64,000 nucleotides of DNA, from NCBI GenBank assembly GCA_963717365.1, contig OY970327.1, forward strand, positions 587,599 to 651,598. The letters run 5' to 3'. Each line of letters begins with the position of its first letter. The first letter of the stretch is position 1. Shown here piece after piece: positions 2,629-50,226 of this stretch. The DNA comes from Candidatus Saccharimonadia bacterium. GTDB lineage: Bacteria; Patescibacteriota; Saccharimonadia; Saccharimonadales; 2-12-FULL-41-12. The notes under the pieces were generated by a model that was not told the origin of the DNA, did no database searches, and saw only the letters and a list, made by a program, of their open reading frames with translations. The position numbers and the translations under genes were made by a program.

Positions 2629-3594
2629 CTAGCGGCGGCGCGAAGGTTTTACTTTAAGGTAGCGCGCAGTTGCAATCAGGGCCGAGATGGTACCGATAGC
2701 TATACCGGCCAGCAATTGCATTCCTAAAAAGAGCAAGAAGTTATCGCTAAAGTATTGATTGGCAAACTTAATATCGAGTAAGCCTAGGCTACTGGCGTCA
2801 AAAGCTTGCTCCTGGACCACGAACAACGCATTACACACACTCAACGAGATAACTGCCGAGACAATGCCGTATAACATAGTTTCAACAATAAATGGCCCTT
2901 TGATATACCAGTTACTGGCGCCCAGAAGTCGCATAATAGTAAGTTCGTCGCGTCGGTTAAAAATAGCCATTTGAATCGTATTAAAGATGATCAACATGGA
3001 AATGATGGCAAAAACGATAATACTAATAATCACAGCTTGGGTGAAGAAAGTTGTGGCGTTGGTAATTTTATCGATAGCTTCTTTACGGTCGCCGGAGTAT
3101 GAAGTTTCGTTAGATTGCAGCGCTTTAACGTCTGGGGTTTCTAGCACGTTACGAATTTCATCAATGCGGACAGGATCTTTTGGTTTAATCTGTATAGTGG
3201 CAGGCAGCGGATTGTCAGTTTGAGAAATGGCCAGTAACAGTTCTAGGTTATCTTGGTTGTCACGTTGGTAATTTTCGAGCGCCTGGTCTTTTGAAACATA
3301 CGTCACCTCTTTAACATTGTCTAGTTCTTTTATCTGCTTAACTAGATTACTGCTCTGTTCTTCGCTGACGTCGTCTTTTAAGTAGACTGATATATCGATC
3401 CGATCGGTGATCTGGGTTATAGTGTTACTAAAAGTAGCATTAGCAATTACCGAAAATAATACGATGGTAAGTGTTACTACCATCACTGCCGTGGCTGCTA
3501 CGCTGAGGGAAATATTACGTATAAAGTTAATGGCACCGGTTTTAATAATTCGCTCAAGCGTAATCAACTTACGTTTTAAAGGCTCTCTCTGCAT
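2629..3594 (-). CDS. ftsX: Cell-division ABC transporter permease FtsX
   Basis: 321 aa with an N-terminal TM, a large extracytoplasmic loop and three C-terminal TMs typical of FtsX. It starts 20 nt after the ftsE stop. Confidence 0.85.
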   Translation of the reverse strand: MQREPLKRKLITLERIIKTGAINFIRNISLSVAATAVMVVTLTIVLFSVIANATFSNTITQITDRIDISVYLKDDVSEEQSSNLVKQIKELDNVKEVTYVSKDQALENYQRDNQDNLELLLAISQTDNPLPATIQIKPKDPVRIDEIRNVLETPDVKALQSNETSYSGDRKEAIDKITNATTFFTQAVIISIIVFAIISMLIIFNTIQMAIFNRRDELTIMRLLGASNWYIKGPFIVETMLYGIVSAVISLSVCNALFVVQEQAFDASSLGLLDIKFANQYFSDNFLLFLGMQLLAGIAIGTISALIATARYLKVKPSRRR

Positions 3595-3613
3595 TCTTAT
3601 TGGTCCTTCATCC

Positions 3614-4297
3614 CTACTGCTCGTACCCTGAGTTAGCTTTATCGCTAATAATCTGGCCGTCTTTAATAGTTACCACACGCCGTTTCAATTTATTAACAAT
3701 TTCTTGGTTGTGCGTGGTAAGCAGGACGGTGGTGCCGTACTTATTGATTTTTTCGAGTACTTTAATTACATCCCAGGCATGCTTGGGATCTAAGTTGCCC
3801 GTGGGCTCATCGGCGATCAAGATTTTGGGTTGACGGATAACGGCACGGGCAATCGCAACACGCTGGCGCTCGCCACCAGATAATTCGCGTGGATAGCTTT
3901 TTTCTTTTCCTTTTAGGCCAACAATATTGAGCACCTTTGGTACAGTGTGCCTAATTTCCCGGTTACTCATACCTATAATTTCCAGGGCGAAGGCAACGTT
4001 CTCAAAAACGGTTTTATTCGGTAATAATTTAAAGTCCTGGAAAACTACGCCAATCCTACGGCGCAAGCGCGGCACGTCTTTGTCTTTAAGCCGTTCATAG
4101 TCAATACCGCCAATGATAATTTTGCCGCTGGTGGGCTTCTCTTCTCTGGTAAGCAACTTGAGTAAGGTTGATTTACCAGCACCACTCGGTCCTACCACTA
4201 TGACGAATTCTTTCGGTTCAATATGCAGGCTAATACGCTGCAGCGCCGCGTCTGAACGGCGCGCGTACGACTTTGATACCCTATCAAGCAAGATCAT
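3614..4297 (-). CDS. ftsE: Cell-division ATP-binding protein FtsE
   Basis: Walker A GPSGAGKST, ABC signature LSGGERQR and Walker B ILIADEPT. Adjacent to ftsX. Confidence 0.9.
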   Translation of the reverse strand: MILLDRVSKSYARRSDAALQRISLHIEPKEFVIVVGPSGAGKSTLLKLLTREEKPTSGKIIIGGIDYERLKDKDVPRLRRRIGVVFQDFKLLPNKTVFENVAFALEIIGMSNREIRHTVPKVLNIVGLKGKEKSYPRELSGGERQRVAIARAVIRQPKILIADEPTGNLDPKHAWDVIKVLEKINKYGTTVLLTTHNQEIVNKLKRRVVTIKDGQIISDKANSGYEQ

Positions 4298-44556: not shown

Positions 44557-44820
44557 CTAAATATGGGTGTAGTATGAAATTTCTTGCATCAGAGGAAAAT
44601 CAGTGCCTTGCCAAAATTTAACTAGCTGCCCATCCGTACCCAATACGAGAATGGCTGGGTGTTGGATGATGTCATAGAGACTAGCGGTTGATGAGCCATC
44701 CCTAGTATCTATATTTACTAGATCGATTCGCGCTTGGTGTTGTCGTTCTAGTTCCCGGGCAAAATCTTCTACCATACGAGAGAATTCTGAGTTCGGACGG
44801 TAAAGCATAACTACCTTCAT
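44557..44820 (-). CDS. Thioredoxin-fold small protein lacking the CxxC motif
   Basis: 87 aa with a beta-alpha-beta pattern (KVVMLY...IDLVNID...HPAILVLG...LVKFWQG). NSEFS sits where CxxC is expected. TGCTATACT (44836->44828) lies 7 nt upstream of ATG 44820. Confidence 0.45.
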   Translation of the reverse strand: MKVVMLYRPNSEFSRMVEDFARELERQHQARIDLVNIDTRDGSSTASLYDIIQHPAILVLGTDGQLVKFWQGTDFPLMQEISYYTHI

Positions 44821-45001: not shown

Positions 45002-47824
45002 TTACGAACATCCAGTGGTGCTGCCGCAAGAAGTACAGACGTAACAGCTGCCAGAGCGCTGCGTCTGATTACCGCAGTTATAGCACATCGGTGCAGTATC
45101 GTCCTGCTTAGCAGACAGACTACTCCGCTTTTGGGCTGTCGCGGCCATAGCAGTGTCTACACCTGGCGCTTCGGCTGTATCCGACTCAACTGAAACTGAT
45201 GCAGGCAATGCTACAACGGTTGCTTCAACAATTGTCGAACCTTCTACAATGCTTGTTTCCTCGGTGAGTAAGCTGGTCTGAACCTCGGGTATGTCATCAA
45301 AGGAAGCCAAGCCGAGCTCCAAACGGTCATCGAATGACAAGTAGTTAATTGCCAGGCGACGGAAGATGTAGTCGATCAATGATGACGCCGTACGAACTTC
45401 CGGGTCGTCCGTGATGCCGGCGGGCGCAAAACTGGTACTCATGAATGTTCTTACGTATGTCTTGAGCGGAACACCGTACTGCAGTCCGTGACTGACAGAT
45501 ATGGCGAAGGCATCCATGATGCCCCGCAGGGTTGAACCGTGCTTGGCAAAGTGGATAAATAACTCTCCAGCACTACCATCTTCATACTCGCCAACAGTGG
45601 CATAGCCTTTAGAATCAGCTACCCGGAACGAGAAGGTCTTTGAAGAACGGATTTTTGGCAGTTCACGGCGGACCGCGCCCCTGACAATAATCTTGTCATT
45701 GATATCTTCGACAGTAACTGCTTCTTTATCTTCAGAGCTGGCTTTTTTGGCCATTGCCAGCGGCTGGCCAACTTTACAGTTGTCGCGGTACACTGCTACA
45801 GCTTTTAGGCCGAGCTTCCAGGCATCAAGATGAATCTGCTCAATGTCTTCTAAGGTAGCTTCTTCCGGCATATTGACGGTCTTACTAATAGCTCCCGAGA
45901 TAAATGGTTGCACGGCAGACATCATTTTGACGTGGCCAAGGTAATGGATTGAGTTGTCGCCCATTGAGCAGGCGAAGACGTTTTTGTGGTTTGCCTTGAG
46001 GTGTGGCGCACCGATGATGGTTTTTTCAGTGTCGATGTAGGCCACGATGTCTTTAACCTGGGCGGCCGTATAGCCAAGCGCCTTTAGAGCACGGGGCACA
46101 GTCTGGTTCACGATATGCATAGTACCACCGCCAACCAATTTTTTAACTTTTACCAAACCAAGGTCAGGCTCGATACCAGTAGTGTCGCAGTCCATCATCA
46201 AGCCAATGGTGCCGGTTGGCGCTAGTACGCTAGCCTGAGAGTTGCGGACGCCGTACAATTCGGATAATTCAACGGCATTGTCCCATGCGGTTGCCGCTGC
46301 GCTCAAAAGCTCTTCAGAAACAAGGCTGGCATCAACATCGTTAATAGCAGCGCGGTGCTGCTTAAGGATCTTGATTACATTTTCCTGGTCTTTATGGAAA
46401 CCAGCAAACGGACCGACCTTGCGGGCAATCTTAGCGCTGGTAGCATAGGCGTGCCCGGTCATTAGCGCCGTGATGGCAGCTGCTTGGGCTCGACCTTCTG
46501 CTGAGTCGTATGGCAGACCTTGAGCCATTAGCAAAGCACCGAGGTTGGCGTACCCAATACCTAATTCGCGGTAAGCTCGGGCATTCTTAGTGATGCTTTC
46601 GGTTGGATACTCACTATAGCCGACTAGAATTTCCTGGGCAGTAAAGATCAATTCTACGGTGTGCTTAAAGGCTTCAATATCAAAGCTAAAGTCATCACGA
46701 AGATATTTCAACAGGTTGATTGAGGCCAGGTTACAAGCGGAATTGTCCAGGTGCATGTATTCCGAGCATGGATTGGAACCATTGATGCGTCCGGCGTTTG
46801 GTGTGGTATGCCAGTGGTTAATAGTGGTATCAAACTGCATACCCGGATCAGCGCATTCCCAGGCTGCCTGGGCGAATTGGCGCATCAGATCCCGGGCTTT
46901 AATAGTTTTAACTGATTTGCCGGTCCGAACAGCCTTCAGATCCCAGTCATCATCATTTTCAACAGCTTGCATGAACTCGTCGCTGACGCGGACTGAGTTA
47001 TTAGCATTCTGATACTGCACGGAGAAAGAATCTTTGCCGTCCATGCTCATATCAAAGCCGGCAGCCTGCAAAGCGCGAGCTTTGCGCTCTTCAATGGCTT
47101 TAGACCAAATGAATTCTTCAACATCGGGATGATCGGCATTTAAAATCACCATTTTAGCGGCCCGACGGGTTTTACCACCACTCTTAATGGCACCAGCCGA
47201 TGCATCGGCGCCACGCATGAAGCTGAGCGGGCCAGAAGCAGTACCGGCTGACTTGCCAAGCGGTTCCACTGACGAGCGGATGCCGCTTAGGTTGATACCA
47301 GAGCCTGAGCCGCCCTTAAAGATCATGCCTTCTTCTTTGTACCAGTTAAGGATGGCTGGCATAGTATCTTCGATACCAAGGATAAAGCAAGCGCTAGCCT
47401 GTTGGGCGCGGTCTGGCGCGCCAATATTAAACCACACCGGTGAGTTAAAAGCTGCCCGTTGAGTTGCTAGAATATACTTTAATTCTTCGCGGAAGGTTTC
47501 GGCGTCTTCGCCGGACTCAAAATAATTTTCTTGTATGCCTTGGCGAGTAACAGTGTCAACGACACGGTTGATGAGATCTTTGAGTGAGGATTCGCGATCT
47601 TTAGTGCCGGGCGTACCGGTAAAGTATTTCTGCGCTACGATATTAATCGAATTAAGCGACCATTCTTCTGGGAATTCGACGCCGAATTGCTCGAATACAT
47701 TCTTCCCGGTCATCGGATTAGCGATGATAGAGTCGCGCTTAACCCAGGTTAACTGGTCGTACGCCTTCGTTTTTGAGTCGGTGAAAAGACGACCCAATGT
47801 TAAATTGGTTGTTTGTTGACCCAT
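45002..47824 (-). CDS. nrdJ: Class II (adenosylcobalamin-dependent) ribonucleotide reductase NrdJ
   Basis: 940 aa with a long actinobacterial-like NrdJ layout, active-site NPCSE, and a Cys-rich C-terminal tail CYNCGNQTQRSGSCYVCTSCGSTTGCS. A GAGGG SD is present. Confidence 0.9.
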   Translation of the reverse strand: MGQQTTNLTLGRLFTDSKTKAYDQLTWVKRDSIIANPMTGKNVFEQFGVEFPEEWSLNSINIVAQKYFTGTPGTKDRESSLKDLINRVVDTVTRQGIQENYFESGEDAETFREELKYILATQRAAFNSPVWFNIGAPDRAQQASACFILGIEDTMPAILNWYKEEGMIFKGGSGSGINLSGIRSSVEPLGKSAGTASGPLSFMRGADASAGAIKSGGKTRRAAKMVILNADHPDVEEFIWSKAIEERKARALQAAGFDMSMDGKDSFSVQYQNANNSVRVSDEFMQAVENDDDWDLKAVRTGKSVKTIKARDLMRQFAQAAWECADPGMQFDTTINHWHTTPNAGRINGSNPCSEYMHLDNSACNLASINLLKYLRDDFSFDIEAFKHTVELIFTAQEILVGYSEYPTESITKNARAYRELGIGYANLGALLMAQGLPYDSAEGRAQAAAITALMTGHAYATSAKIARKVGPFAGFHKDQENVIKILKQHRAAINDVDASLVSEELLSAAATAWDNAVELSELYGVRNSQASVLAPTGTIGLMMDCDTTGIEPDLGLVKVKKLVGGGTMHIVNQTVPRALKALGYTAAQVKDIVAYIDTEKTIIGAPHLKANHKNVFACSMGDNSIHYLGHVKMMSAVQPFISGAISKTVNMPEEATLEDIEQIHLDAWKLGLKAVAVYRDNCKVGQPLAMAKKASSEDKEAVTVEDINDKIIVRGAVRRELPKIRSSKTFSFRVADSKGYATVGEYEDGSAGELFIHFAKHGSTLRGIMDAFAISVSHGLQYGVPLKTYVRTFMSTSFAPAGITDDPEVRTASSLIDYIFRRLAINYLSFDDRLELGLASFDDIPEVQTSLLTEETSIVEGSTIVEATVVALPASVSVESDTAEAPGVDTAMAATAQKRSSLSAKQDDTAPMCYNCGNQTQRSGSCYVCTSCGSTTGCS

Positions 47825-47871
47825 AGTAATACCCTCACTTATGGTTATTTAAATATTTTTTAATGTTTGTC

Positions 47872-48031
47872 AGAACCCATTGCCTGTCTTTTCTCTATAG
47901 CGAAAGTCGCATGGGTGAGTGCCAGGTATTTGTTTTATTCGTCAGCGTACCGAAGGTACTCTTCCTCTTAAAACAAATACCTGGTGCCGCCAAGGCGGCT
48001 TGTAGCAGAGAAAAGACAGGCAATGGGTTCT
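47872..48031 (-). ncRNA. Unclassified 160-nt multi-branched structured element (nested perfect inverted repeats) in the nrdR-nrdJ spacer
   Basis: 25-bp perfect inverted repeat 47872-47896 / 48007-48031 enclosing a 16-bp perfect repeat 47922-47937 / 47969-47984 and small hairpins at 47900-47910, 47947-47959 and 47987-48000. Further hairpins lie at 48041-48069 and 48085-48119. Confidence 0.4.
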
Positions 48032-48161
48032 TAGAGTGTTCGCATCATCCGTCTCTAAGAGATGATACGGCGCTCTCCTCGACCTTTAATGCGCGAGCTC
48101 AGGCTTTAAGCGCATTAAACGGCGGGGAAAGCTGTCGAAGTCTGTTCGATCCCAGCGGATT

Positions 48162-48653
48162 CTAGACTTCGACTGGCTCTTTAGGAATACTTGTTTCTGT
48201 TTTACGGCGACGAATATCGGATAGTTCTTGCTCGAAACTGGCAATATCCTTAAATCGTCGGTATACACTGGCGAATCGTACGTATGCTACCTCGTTTAAC
48301 ACGGCCAGCTTCTCGATAACGAGTTCGCCAATCGCGGCAGTCGATACCTCGGTGTCGCCACATTCATACAGCTGCTGTTCCACTTCTGAAACAAGTTGTT
48401 CCAGCTGCACGCTACTAACCGATGTTTTCTCGCAGGCTCGGTATAATCCGGCCAGCAACTTGTCGCGATTAAACAGCTCTCGGACATTATTGTTCTTTAC
48501 CACAATTAACTGTGGACGCTCAATTCTTTCATAGGTAGTGAATCGATAGTTACAGGACGCGCACATGCGGCGTCTGCGAATCGATTCACCGCCGCCAGCT
48601 TCGCGTGACTCAATAACTTTGGTATCGGCCGCATGACAATGATTACAGTTCAT
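48162..48653 (-). CDS. nrdR: Transcriptional repressor NrdR
   Basis: Zn ribbon (CNHCHA...CASCNYRF) plus an ATP-cone. 163 aa. Confidence 0.9.
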   Translation of the reverse strand: MNCNHCHAADTKVIESREAGGGESIRRRRMCASCNYRFTTYERIERPQLIVVKNNNVRELFNRDKLLAGLYRACEKTSVSSVQLEQLVSEVEQQLYECGDTEVSTAAIGELVIEKLAVLNEVAYVRFASVYRRFKDIASFEQELSDIRRRKTETSIPKEPVEV

Positions 48654-48739
48654 GTATGCCTCTCCCTTTATGAATCCCTCTGTAACGAATGGATTCTTTA
48701 GTTAATGTGCCACGCTGTTAGTTTTCTATATAGCAGTTT

Positions 48740-48788
48740 TTCCTATATATAGCGTTTGTACTAGTAATAGTAACGCTAGCTATAGCGT
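48740..48788 (-). promoter_or_regulatory. Tandem NrdR-box-like palindromes overlapping the candidate nrdR promoter
   Basis: Minus strand reads ACGCTATAGCTAGCGT (48788->48773) and ACGCTATATATAGGAA (48755->48740), with centres 33 bp apart. Box 1 fills the 17-nt spacer between TTGCAT and TACTAT. A third partial CTATATAG lies at 48726-48733. Confidence 0.4.
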
Positions 48789-48849
48789 AATGCAAGCATT
48801 TTACGTAGTGTTAATTACATGATTTTAACAGAGGTGTCTGTAAGAATTT

Positions 48850-50226
48850 TTACTTTTCTTTATCTTGATCTTTGTCGTCGGCTTCTTCATCTTTAGCTCG
48901 TTTTTTAAAGCCTAAGCGCCGTAAAAATGAGGGTTCATCAATTTCTTCGTCTTCTTCGTCAAACAACGTGCCACTCGACTTAGGGTCTGCTTTGGTAGTT
49001 GATTTGTCGGCTTTGGTATCATCTTTGCCGGTGTGCTCGGCTTCTATGTGAGACCAGATGTTTGGCACGCTAGTGTCTCTAGTAAAGTCTTCCCGCTGAG
49101 TATCTTCGTCTGATGATTCTTCAAGATCCATATTTATATCTGCGGGTACATCTTGGTTGCTTTTGACTGAATCGCGGGCAGAAACAGGTTCTGGCGTGTA
49201 ACTTTTGGTGGTCGGAGCGGCAGTGTGCTGAGCAGTTGGCGTGGTGAGTGGTTCAGCAGTCTTATTAAAGTAGGCTTCTTCGAAGCCGGTGGCTACAACC
49301 GTAACAATGATCTCGCCTTCCAGCTGCGGATTGATAGTAGCACCGAAAATAATGTTAGCTTTTTGATCAGCCGAAGCGGTAATCGTTTCGGCCACGGTGT
49401 TAATCTCGTGCATAGACATGTCGTTGCCACCAATAACGTTGAATAGGATACCGCGGGCGCCATCTATTGAAACTTCTAGTAGTGGTGATTCGACGGCTTC
49501 CTGGGCAGCTTCAACGGCGCGGTTGTCACCGCTAGCTCGACCAATTCCCATTAGTGCAGAACCGGCGTTACTCATGACCGCTTTAACATCAGCAAAGTCG
49601 AGGTTGATAAGGCCATGAACAGTAATAAGGTCTGAGATACCTTGAACTCCTTGACGTAATACGTCGTCGGCTACCTTAAAAGCCTGGAGAATTGGCGTTG
49701 ACCGGTCGATAGTCTGCAGCAAACGATCGTTCGGTATAATAATGAGTGTATCAACAGACGCGCGCAGATTGGAGATAGCAGCCTCGGCGTTAATTCGGCG
49801 CTTCTCGCCCTCAAATGCAAATGGCTTTGTAGCAAACCCTACCACCAAGATATCAAGGTCTCGAGCTATTTTAGCTACGATGTGGCCGGCGCCAGAGCCC
49901 GTGCCGCCACCGGCGCCAATGGTGATAAAAATCATGTCAGCGCCTTCTATGGCAGCCTTGATTTCATCATATGACTCTTCTGCTGCTCGTTGCCCGGCCG
50001 AGGGATCAGCACCTGCTCCTAGGCCGCGGGTTGTTTCGTGGCCAATATGAATTTTAGTTTCGGCTTTAGAATGGTGCAATGCTTGGGCGTCTGTATTAAT
50101 AGCAATGAACTCAACACCATCAACGCCGGCGTCAATCATACGGTTCACAGCTGCCCCGCCGGCGCCGCCCACACCAATTACCTTAATACGTGCAAATGTT
50201 TCTATAGCCGGTGAAACCTGAGGCAT
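48850..50226 (-). CDS. ftsZ: Cell division protein FtsZ
   Basis: GGGTGSGA tubulin signature. 458 aa with a long acidic/Lys-rich C-terminal linker. Confidence 0.95.

Follow-up and report, generated by a model that had tools for sequence, protein, structure and literature searches.

Ribonucleotide reductase (RNR) is the sole route to deoxynucleotides. In Streptomyces, nrdR lies immediately 5' of nrdJ, and tandem 16-bp NrdR boxes with centres about three helical turns apart are located at the operon promoter; we found no structured intercistronic leader described for Streptomyces nrdRJ in the literature. In the cggR-gapA operon of Bacillus subtilis, RNase Y cleaves towards the end of the repressor cistron, and the resulting enzyme mRNA bears a stabilising 5' stem-loop, which uncouples the levels of the two proteins. 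Correia elements (NEMIS) of Neisseria are present in hundreds of copies, measure about 100-160 bp, end in inverted repeats of about 26 bp and generate a duplication of a TA target; they often lie between the genes of operons, in transcribed sequence, and the folded repeat is then a substrate of RNase III, whose cut alters mRNA stability. The ERIC/IRU, REP/BIME, BOX and RUP elements are perfect or imperfect palindromes of 30-130 nt inside operon transcripts, which show strain polymorphism and affect mRNA decay; they are multi-copy by definition, with sequence shared between the copies. Finally, the intervening sequences (IVS) of bacterial 23S and 16S rRNA are sporadic insertions of about 100-200 nt with a long closing stem, which sit at tolerant sites, are structurally silent and are removed by RNase III. 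Here we compare with these systems the spacer between nrdR and nrdJ (47825-48161, 337 nt, minus strand) in a 64-kb stretch of contig OY970327.1 from a Candidatus Saccharimonadia bacterium, referred to below as the window.

The spacer is a composite. Its conserved part is a structured, sense-strand nrdJ leader RNA, a candidate cis-regulatory motif of Saccharimonadia, and between this part and the ribosome-binding region lies a 161-nt insertion, private to the window lineage, which is a self-contained hairpin element. We consider it probable that both belong to an nrdR-nrdJ operon mRNA in which the leader sets NrdJ output post-transcriptionally and the insertion is structurally silent. The original prediction, derived from the letters of this stretch, described the spacer as a structured RNA or an insert resembling a miniature inverted-repeat transposable element (MITE). 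Both halves of that description apply, to different parts of the spacer: the two hairpins treated there as accessory are the conserved leader, and the central junction is the private, non-conserved insertion. The repeats themselves are present as described. The 25-nt arms (47872-47896/48007-48031) are 100% complementary, the perfect 16-nt core (47922-47937/47969-47984) is part of a 30-nt, 80% pair, the 9-bp hairpin (48041-48049/48061-48069) has one non-Watson-Crick position, and the perfect 10-bp core (TTTAATGCGC/GCGCATTAAA) lies inside a 23-nt pair (48072-48094/48110-48132).

To define the conserved part, the window was set against 80 related loci from a genome scan (71-81% NrdJ identity), out of 594 confirmed Saccharimonadia nrdJ loci, and against the three closest relatives retrieved, L081, L082 and L083 (84-86% NrdJ identity); in total, 83 related loci and 859 kb of Saccharimonadia DNA were scanned. 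The nearest NrdJ homologues all belong to Candidatus Saccharimonadales/Saccharibacteria, and the identical protein is encoded on a 1.19-Mb contig. The leaders share a common order of elements, consisting of a single-stranded 5' flank UUUGACR, hairpin P1 with the base GYUCYCC...GGRGAGC(U), hairpin P2, the tail GAACUCUAAACAAA, an A-rich stretch and the sequence AAGUGAGGGUAYU before the nrdJ AUG. A covariance model built from 12 leaders with P1 alone annotated (R1) gave 48 sense-strand matches when both strands of the 859 kb were scanned, all of them in nrdR-nrdJ spacers (48 of 83) and none elsewhere in that DNA.

In the window, the motif from the 5' flank to the tail spans 48026-48139 on the minus strand (R1, 25.7 bits, E = 0.024). 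The flank, conserved across leaders, reads UUCGACA (48133-48139), and the following P1 (48072-48132) has a 7-bp base, GCUUUCC/GGAGAGC, a 1x1 loop and 2 bp, with the perfect 10-bp stem (48085-48094/48110-48119) in its distal part. P2 (48041-48069) comprises 9-10 bp with one G-U and the loop CUUAGAGAC (48051-48059; family consensus YGAGAGMC), and the conserved tail is ACUCUAA (48031-48037). Beyond the insertion, an A-rich unstructured linker, ACAAACAUUAAAAAAUAUUUAAAUAACCAUA (47840-47870), which is shared with the closest relatives, leads to an extended Shine-Dalgarno (SD) box, AGUGAGGGUAUUACU (47825-47839), directly 5' of the nrdJ AUG; linker and SD box together are 87.5% identical to those of L082. 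The SD box is found in nearly all related leaders, and its exact string, AGTGAGGGTA, is unique to nrdJ within the window. Across the family, the motif starts a few to about 40 nt from the nrdR stop codon, the sequence UUUG^AC (the caret denoting a putative cut) precedes P1 at a fixed distance of 3 nt, and the distance from the tail to the AUG is 27-54 nt in 33 species. The P2 stem differs in sequence between species and its loop is usually YGAGAGMC. About 40 nt are conserved, located in helix bases, a loop and single-stranded flanks, and the distal stems are free in length and sequence.

The base of P1 covaries. In an arm-anchored alignment of 46 leaders, 87.9% of the cells were paired, compared with 74.4% after shuffling and 37-53% when the partner was slid; in an alignment derived from the covariance model the value was 91.8%, and over both alignments the shuffles yielded 74-80% and the slid controls 37-56%. 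Double-sided changes were found at 8 of 10-11 pairs over both alignments and at 8 of 11 pairs of the arm-anchored one, e.g. UA 22 and CG 21 at pair 5, and CG 29, UA 12, GC 3 and AU 1 at pair 7. The covariation score was reached by none of 500 shuffles. P2 is present in 43 of the 46 leaders with a median z of -2.5. Because its arm and loop lengths vary, MAFFT and RNAalifold were unable to align it, and a permutation test of cognate versus non-cognate duplexes was used. The 5' half paired with its own 3' half at a mean of -13.4 kcal/mol, compared with -6.4 kcal/mol for halves from other species, and the cognate half was the best of 42 partners in 19 cases and among the top three in 28. With regard to the covariation check suggested in the original prediction for the spacers of relatives, P1 covaries as judged against shuffles and P2 passes the cognate-arm test. 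A closing helix around P1 and P2 (UUUG/CAAA or UUYG/CGAA) was rejected, as flank and tail sequences, on inspection, show no consistent complementarity or compensation. Five pattern matches to the leader in viral contigs (L085-L089) were likewise discarded as chance, having no nrdR or nrdJ nearby and R1 scores of at most 23 bits.

The strand on which the leader functions follows from the same comparison. In 21-22 sequences, P1 pair 2 is a U-G, a combination that would read A-C on the opposite strand and that therefore indicates a sense-strand RNA, and the sense strand folds better than the antisense strand in 38 of 48 leaders (Wilcoxon p = 1.5e-5). For the conserved part of the window by itself, the antisense strand is slightly more stable (-47.2 vs -42.9 kcal/mol). 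The original prediction had chosen the minus strand from the single G-U in P2; the choice is borne out by the comparative data, with the G-U argument being weak by itself and the folds of the window alone undecided.

Several leaders depart from the common form. Species without P1 and/or the tail (L035, L036, L063, L030, L032, L080, L067 and L021; spacers of 25-105 nt) often still have, 10-30 nt 5' of the SD, either a short hairpin or just a GAGAG-type loop of purines, such as UAAUAA-CGAGAGAC-AUUAUUA in L036; of all parts of the leader, the GAGAG loop may be the most persistent. In the window, the P1 loop (48085-48119) is larger than in L083 and L081, owing to a palindromic GCGC...GCGC segment that contains a small inner hairpin. 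Together with the 161-nt insertion, this enlargement implies that the window lineage added self-pairing sequence at two separate leader sites.

The insertion occupies 47871-48031 on the minus strand, with a boundary that is ambiguous by one A (1 nt). Five relatives with 81-86% NrdJ identity (L001, L013, L081, L082 and L083) have an empty site with intact, uninterrupted flanks, and a six-way alignment shows a clean 161-column gap between the conserved flanks ACTCTA and ACAAACATTAAAAAA: in the relatives, ACTCTA is joined directly to ACAAAC, and in the window the two are separated by AGAACC...GGTTCTG. The spacers of L082 and L083 are 157 and 161 nt long, and the L081 sequence, which starts 264 nt 5' of nrdJ inside the nrdR end, also lacks the insertion; the junction is missing from all the other relatives as well. 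The predicted fold of the insertion agrees with the junction proposed in the original prediction, since both the minimum free energy and the centroid structure of the minus strand place an outer 25-bp perfect stem (48007-48031/47872-47896) around hairpins at 47987-48000, 47922-47984 (a 16-bp stem with an inner hairpin at 47947-47959) and 47900-47910. The two purine-rich loops, thought at first to resemble kink-turns, form a symmetric 9x9 internal loop in this fold, in contrast to the asymmetric kink-turn layout, in which a 3-nt bulge and tandem sheared G-A pairs lie between a C-stem and an NC-stem. The interior of the insertion is not palindromic, as it comprises three separate hairpins and its left and right inner segments differ.

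As minus-strand RNA, the whole 337-nt spacer has a folding energy of -140.6 kcal/mol with a z of -12.0, the plus strand is folded just as well, with a z of -12.3, and the 25-mer repeat found no match in 100 shuffles; given such z values on both strands and the shuffling result, the repeats are far beyond chance. The 25-nt arms are the longest perfect non-simple inverted repeat in the 859 kb. A 100-nt low-complexity tract (L017, 7634-7733; arms with <6 distinct dinucleotides), which topped the first inverted-repeat scan, was filtered out. Two weak terminator-like sites are located within the insertion, one on the minus strand (47980-47994) and one on the plus strand (47947-47959), a count no higher than in shuffles; the site on the nrdJ strand has a 5-bp stem followed by UAUUUGUUUU, and such a site could be relevant co-transcriptionally. 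A plus-strand open reading frame (ORF) that starts with ATG and spans the whole spacer (47863-48165, 100 aa) has no Pfam match and is mostly absent in relatives, and we regard it as a spurious by-product of the palindromes.

Extra structure in the linker is not restricted to the window. Among the linkers of 64 leaders, 33 are short and unstructured and 31 have 61-148 nt with extra hairpins that are unrelated in sequence; the window linker is the extreme of the 64 (206 nt, -90.6 kcal/mol, z = -12.5). In an all-against-all BLASTN comparison of the spacers, similarity was found in the conserved leader, linker and SD parts and never in the inserts. Most simply, the linker would accept only those insertions that fold on themselves, since their closing stem would bring the tail back next to the ribosome-binding region.

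The genes on either side point to an operon that includes the leader. The original calls of nrdJ, nrdR, ftsZ, ftsA and ileS were right: nrdJ (45002-47824, minus strand, 940 aa; PF02867, PF08471, PF12637) encodes a class II B12-dependent RNR, nrdR (48162-48653, minus strand, 163 aa; PF22811, PF03477) encodes the repressor with its Zn-ribbon and ATP-cone, ftsZ and ftsA lie upstream of nrdR, and ileS lies downstream of nrdJ. Two NrdR boxes are found 5' of nrdR (48740-48788, minus strand), ACGCTATAGCTAGCGT at 48773-48788 and ACGCTATATATAGGAA at 48740-48755, with a start-to-start distance of 33 nt. In 76 of 80 loci nrdR is directly 5' of nrdJ on the same strand, with spacers of 25-456 nt (median 165), and paired NrdR boxes 32-33 nt apart precede nrdR in 63 of 73 related loci. 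The NrdR operator (tandem 16-bp palindromes acaCwAtATaTwGtgt, about 32 bp apart) does not occur in the window spacer, and the nrdR-nrdJ spacers contain just eight weak matches to the box (11-13/16). Considering that the boxes lie upstream of nrdR and not in the spacer, NrdR control of nrdJ needs read-through from the nrdR promoter, so the spacer would be transcribed within the operon mRNA. The box placement and the operon arrangement proposed in the original prediction are therefore supported by the window box pair, the related loci and synteny. Gene order and box placement are the same as in Streptomyces nrdRJ, whereas the Saccharimonadia spacer is typically 130-250 nt long and contains a conserved RNA motif.

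These features suggest how the composite spacer might work. The operon mRNA would start at the NrdR-box-controlled promoter upstream of nrdR, and the leader would set the amount of NrdJ at the post-transcriptional level, uncoupled from the repressor gene on the same transcript. An endonucleolytic cut adjoining P1 at UUUG^AC, 3 nt before a very stable stem, would split an unstable repressor message from the enzyme message; P1 and P2 would then shield the 5' end of the nrdJ message, which would be translated efficiently from the open A-rich linker and the SD box, possibly with the participation of a bound factor or ligand that reads the conserved loop and tail. The location of the motif near the nrdR stop codon, the stable P1 after UUUG^AC and the A-rich unstructured region between tail and SD in the minimal forms fit processing and stabilisation of the cggR-gapA type. 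The resemblance is one of pure analogy, with the repressor gene first and the enzyme gene second and with UUUG^AC situated after the nrdR stop codon and 3 nt before P1, and cggR-gapA has no counterpart to the GAGAG loop and the CUCUAAACAAA tail of the nrdJ leader.

With respect to the insertion, the closing stem would rejoin the interrupted flanks ACUCUA and ACAAAC, rendering the insertion structurally silent for the leader. The predicted outer stem has 25 consecutive Watson-Crick pairs, compared with the at least about 20 bp of uninterrupted duplex expected for an RNase III- or IVS-like stem, and should be a good RNase III substrate; a cut there would leave nrdJ to be translated from a message that no longer carries P1 and P2. 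The insertion is similar to an IVS in its lineage-specificity, size and closing stem. However, an IVS sits in rRNA helices and the insertion in an mRNA leader, and excision, unlike that of an IVS, would detach the conserved leader from nrdJ.

Several observations weigh against this account of processing and a silent insertion. The conservation of the P2 loop (GAGAG), the P1 GAGC and the tail is unexplained by a pure stabiliser and fits better with recognition by a particular protein or ligand. No single partner consistently sequesters or exposes the SD in partition-function folds, which leaves the translational logic undefined. The pairing of the P2 loop with the tail is inconsistent across the family: in the window, tail and insert bases are complementary to the loop over 8 nt (48029-48036 with 48053-48060), and a loop-tail pseudoknot of 7-8 bp is possible in the window and a few relatives, but in most species it is limited to 4 bp, at least 4 bp can form in only 24 of 46 leaders and no covariation was found for this pairing among the 46. 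The insertion contains no G-U among 41 Watson-Crick stem pairs, which suggests a young element or a DNA-level constraint and is less typical of selected RNA helices. In addition, co-transcription of nrdR and nrdJ, processing at UUUG^AC and RNase III cleavage are steps that we infer, and the reach of the search for further copies, described below, bears on the claim that the insertion is private.

The specificity of the conserved nucleotides could also be due to the leader being a riboswitch aptamer. In that case a deoxynucleoside or nucleoside triphosphate (dNTP/NTP), adenosylcobalamin (AdoCbl) or a related metabolite would bind the junction of the single strands, the GAGAG loop and the tail, shifting the balance between P1, an RGAG:CUCU helix and the loop-tail pairing and thereby altering nrdJ translation. 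The architecture is aptamer-like, with conserved nucleotides in helix bases, loop and flanks and with variable distal stems, and the association with a single gene, nrdJ, is strict. Pairings that exclude one another are available, since CUCU in the tail pairs with RGAG in the 3' arm of P1 (19 of 19 sequences) and the tail is also a possible partner for the loop GAGAG. The 3' arm of P1 keeps an invariant GAGC even opposite mismatched bases (pair 4 has 9-10 G-G or other non-pairs). No known class matches, in line with the original prediction: Rfam 15 gave no match at E<=10 within 47000-49000, no gathering-level match anywhere in the window and no relevant match at E<=1 in six related loci. ARAGORN detected no tRNA or tmRNA, and in the literature, including surveys of 224 motifs and of 50 genomes, we found no nrdJ or Saccharibacteria leader motif of this kind. 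Orphan riboswitch candidates such as the lysM-TM7 motif of the 224-motif survey are likewise comparative finds upstream of one gene class in one phylum, with covarying helices, conserved loops or junctions and an unidentified ligand or partner; lysM-TM7 itself differs from the nrdJ leader in gene, sequence and fold. On the other hand, no expression platform is recognisable: no U-tract terminator follows the leader motif, and a simple SD-sequestration switch was rejected because the partition-function folds show no consistent SD partner (mean SD pairing probability 0.51). The pseudoknot lacks covariation support, several species retain just a P2-like hairpin or nothing, and in the window a structured insertion of 161 nt is tolerated between the putative aptamer and the SD. 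We therefore hold a riboswitch to be unlikely, and a riboswitch or a protein-binding operator to be a live, though less probable, rival explanation of the leader. A function of the repeats as DNA, either as an nrdJ promoter or operator with a TTGAC -35 element or palindromic repressor sites or as a cruciform, is very improbable. The element TTGACR, immediately preceding P1, approximates the -35 consensus, the string TTCTGACA-N16-TAAATA is present at the insert edge of the window, and both strands of the window spacer fold equally well. However, among 43 leaders only one places an acceptable -10 element 16-18 nt from TTGACR, and the scan predicts no sigma-70 promoter on the nrdJ strand of the window spacer, not even at the promoter-like string noted in the original prediction. 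Moreover, the shortest tail-to-AUG linkers (27-36 nt) are too short to leave room for a separate promoter, the P1 arm spacing, which varies from about 13 to 142 nt among leaders, is incompatible with a dimeric operator, the U-G pairs and the better folding of the sense strand point to RNA, and NrdR boxes are absent from the spacer.

As for the insertion, it could be a Correia- or ERIC-like MITE that landed in the nrdJ leader, its effect on nrdJ being incidental, a possibility to which we assign a low probability. Such an origin is favoured by the terminal inverted repeats, which are perfect over 25 bp, by the overall length of about 160 nt, by presence/absence polymorphism relative to close relatives with clean flanks, and by the perfect pairing, which suggests a recent arrival. 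The closest relative, L081, moreover has an unrelated element of 160 nt with a 19-bp perfect inverted repeat at another locus, in a lineage-specific block. The search for copies proposed in the original prediction gave a single copy in the window and none in the 83 related loci, JGI metagenome contigs, IMG/VR, phage and plasmid collections (BLASTN) or Rfam, with the other ~1.13 Mb of the source genome outside the search; the sole match in the JGI contigs, L084, was a chance 20-mer inside a high-GC ORF. No target-site duplication is seen at the junction in the alignment with the relatives, and the interior consists of three independent hairpins and not of a generic spacer. The insertion thus resembles Correia elements in size and terminal inverted repeats and differs from them in its single known copy, the missing duplication and the three-hairpin interior; with ERIC/IRU-type families it shares the operon location and the presence/absence pattern, although no related copy was found in the collections searched. 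Given that no further copies and no target duplication were found, membership of a MITE or Correia family, as the original prediction had entertained, is not established. That the insertion is an assembly artefact, e.g. a fold-back chimera, is extremely improbable. Fold-back in long-read data can make perfect inverted repeats and only one genome has the element, but the interior is not a palindrome and an independent Logan assembly of run ERR12037361, with identical NrdJ, has the nrdR end at 633 and the nrdJ start at 971, i.e. the same 337-nt spacer. We accordingly retain the composite of a conserved leader and a private insertion as the most plausible description.

The block in L081 extends over about 780 nt (3134-3916), between nrdJ and a small downstream ORF, and is absent from the window, L082 and L083. 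Within it are an ORF of 98 aa on the reverse strand with only a weak RelB-like match, a 40-nt near-palindrome at 3626-3705 and the 160-nt element, closed by the 19-bp repeat (3758-3776/3899-3917; fold z -8.8), which has the same size and architecture as the window insertion and no sequence similarity to it. Other features were noted around the operon. Just 3' of nrdJ, the window has an 87-aa ORF (44557-44820, minus strand) whose position is kept in relatives (83-87 aa); its only Pfam match is a weak one to a thioredoxin fold (E 0.011), and its product may serve the reductase as an NrdH-like redoxin. In many species, perfect inverted repeats of 13-19 bp, some of them nested, lie about 20-130 nt 3' of nrdJ (e.g. 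L074 6855-6927, L048 6865-6931 and L059 7038-7077) and are presumably strong intrinsic terminators that close the nrdRJ operon. Instead of an SD, many ORF starts in the window have a TATACT/TATAAT-like box at about -7 to -14 (e.g. plus strand 54239 and 56210; reverse-complement offsets 28920, 48363, 59703 and 50246). This pattern of sequence suggests that leaderless or very-short-leader mRNAs are widespread in the window, with nrdJ, which has a long leader and a strong SD box, as an exception.

Gene regulation in the Saccharibacteria (TM7; candidate phyla radiation), which live as reduced epibionts, is to our knowledge almost unstudied. That dozens of species-level lineages have a structured RNA missing from Rfam, always between nrdR and nrdJ, points to an additional level of RNR control that acts post-transcriptionally and is peculiar to Saccharimonadia. 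The conserved leader, and not the nested perfect repeats, is the genuinely interesting object of this locus, and its significance would be larger if it proved to sense a metabolite; with about 80-110 nt, it represents a compact, well-defined target for probing and reporter work. The private insertion illustrates how self-closing hairpins can accumulate at a tolerant leader site and provides a natural test of whether the leader must remain physically linked to the nrdJ ribosome-binding site. In the most far-reaching interpretation, which we regard as quite unlikely, the leader would represent a riboswitch class not described before, or some other RNA that senses a ligand or protein, in control of class II RNR across Saccharibacteria, and the 161-nt element an IVS-like, RNase III-excisable expansion segment of an mRNA leader. 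If this were true, these nucleotide-scavenging epibionts would have, besides NrdR, an RNA that senses their deoxynucleotide or cofactor status.

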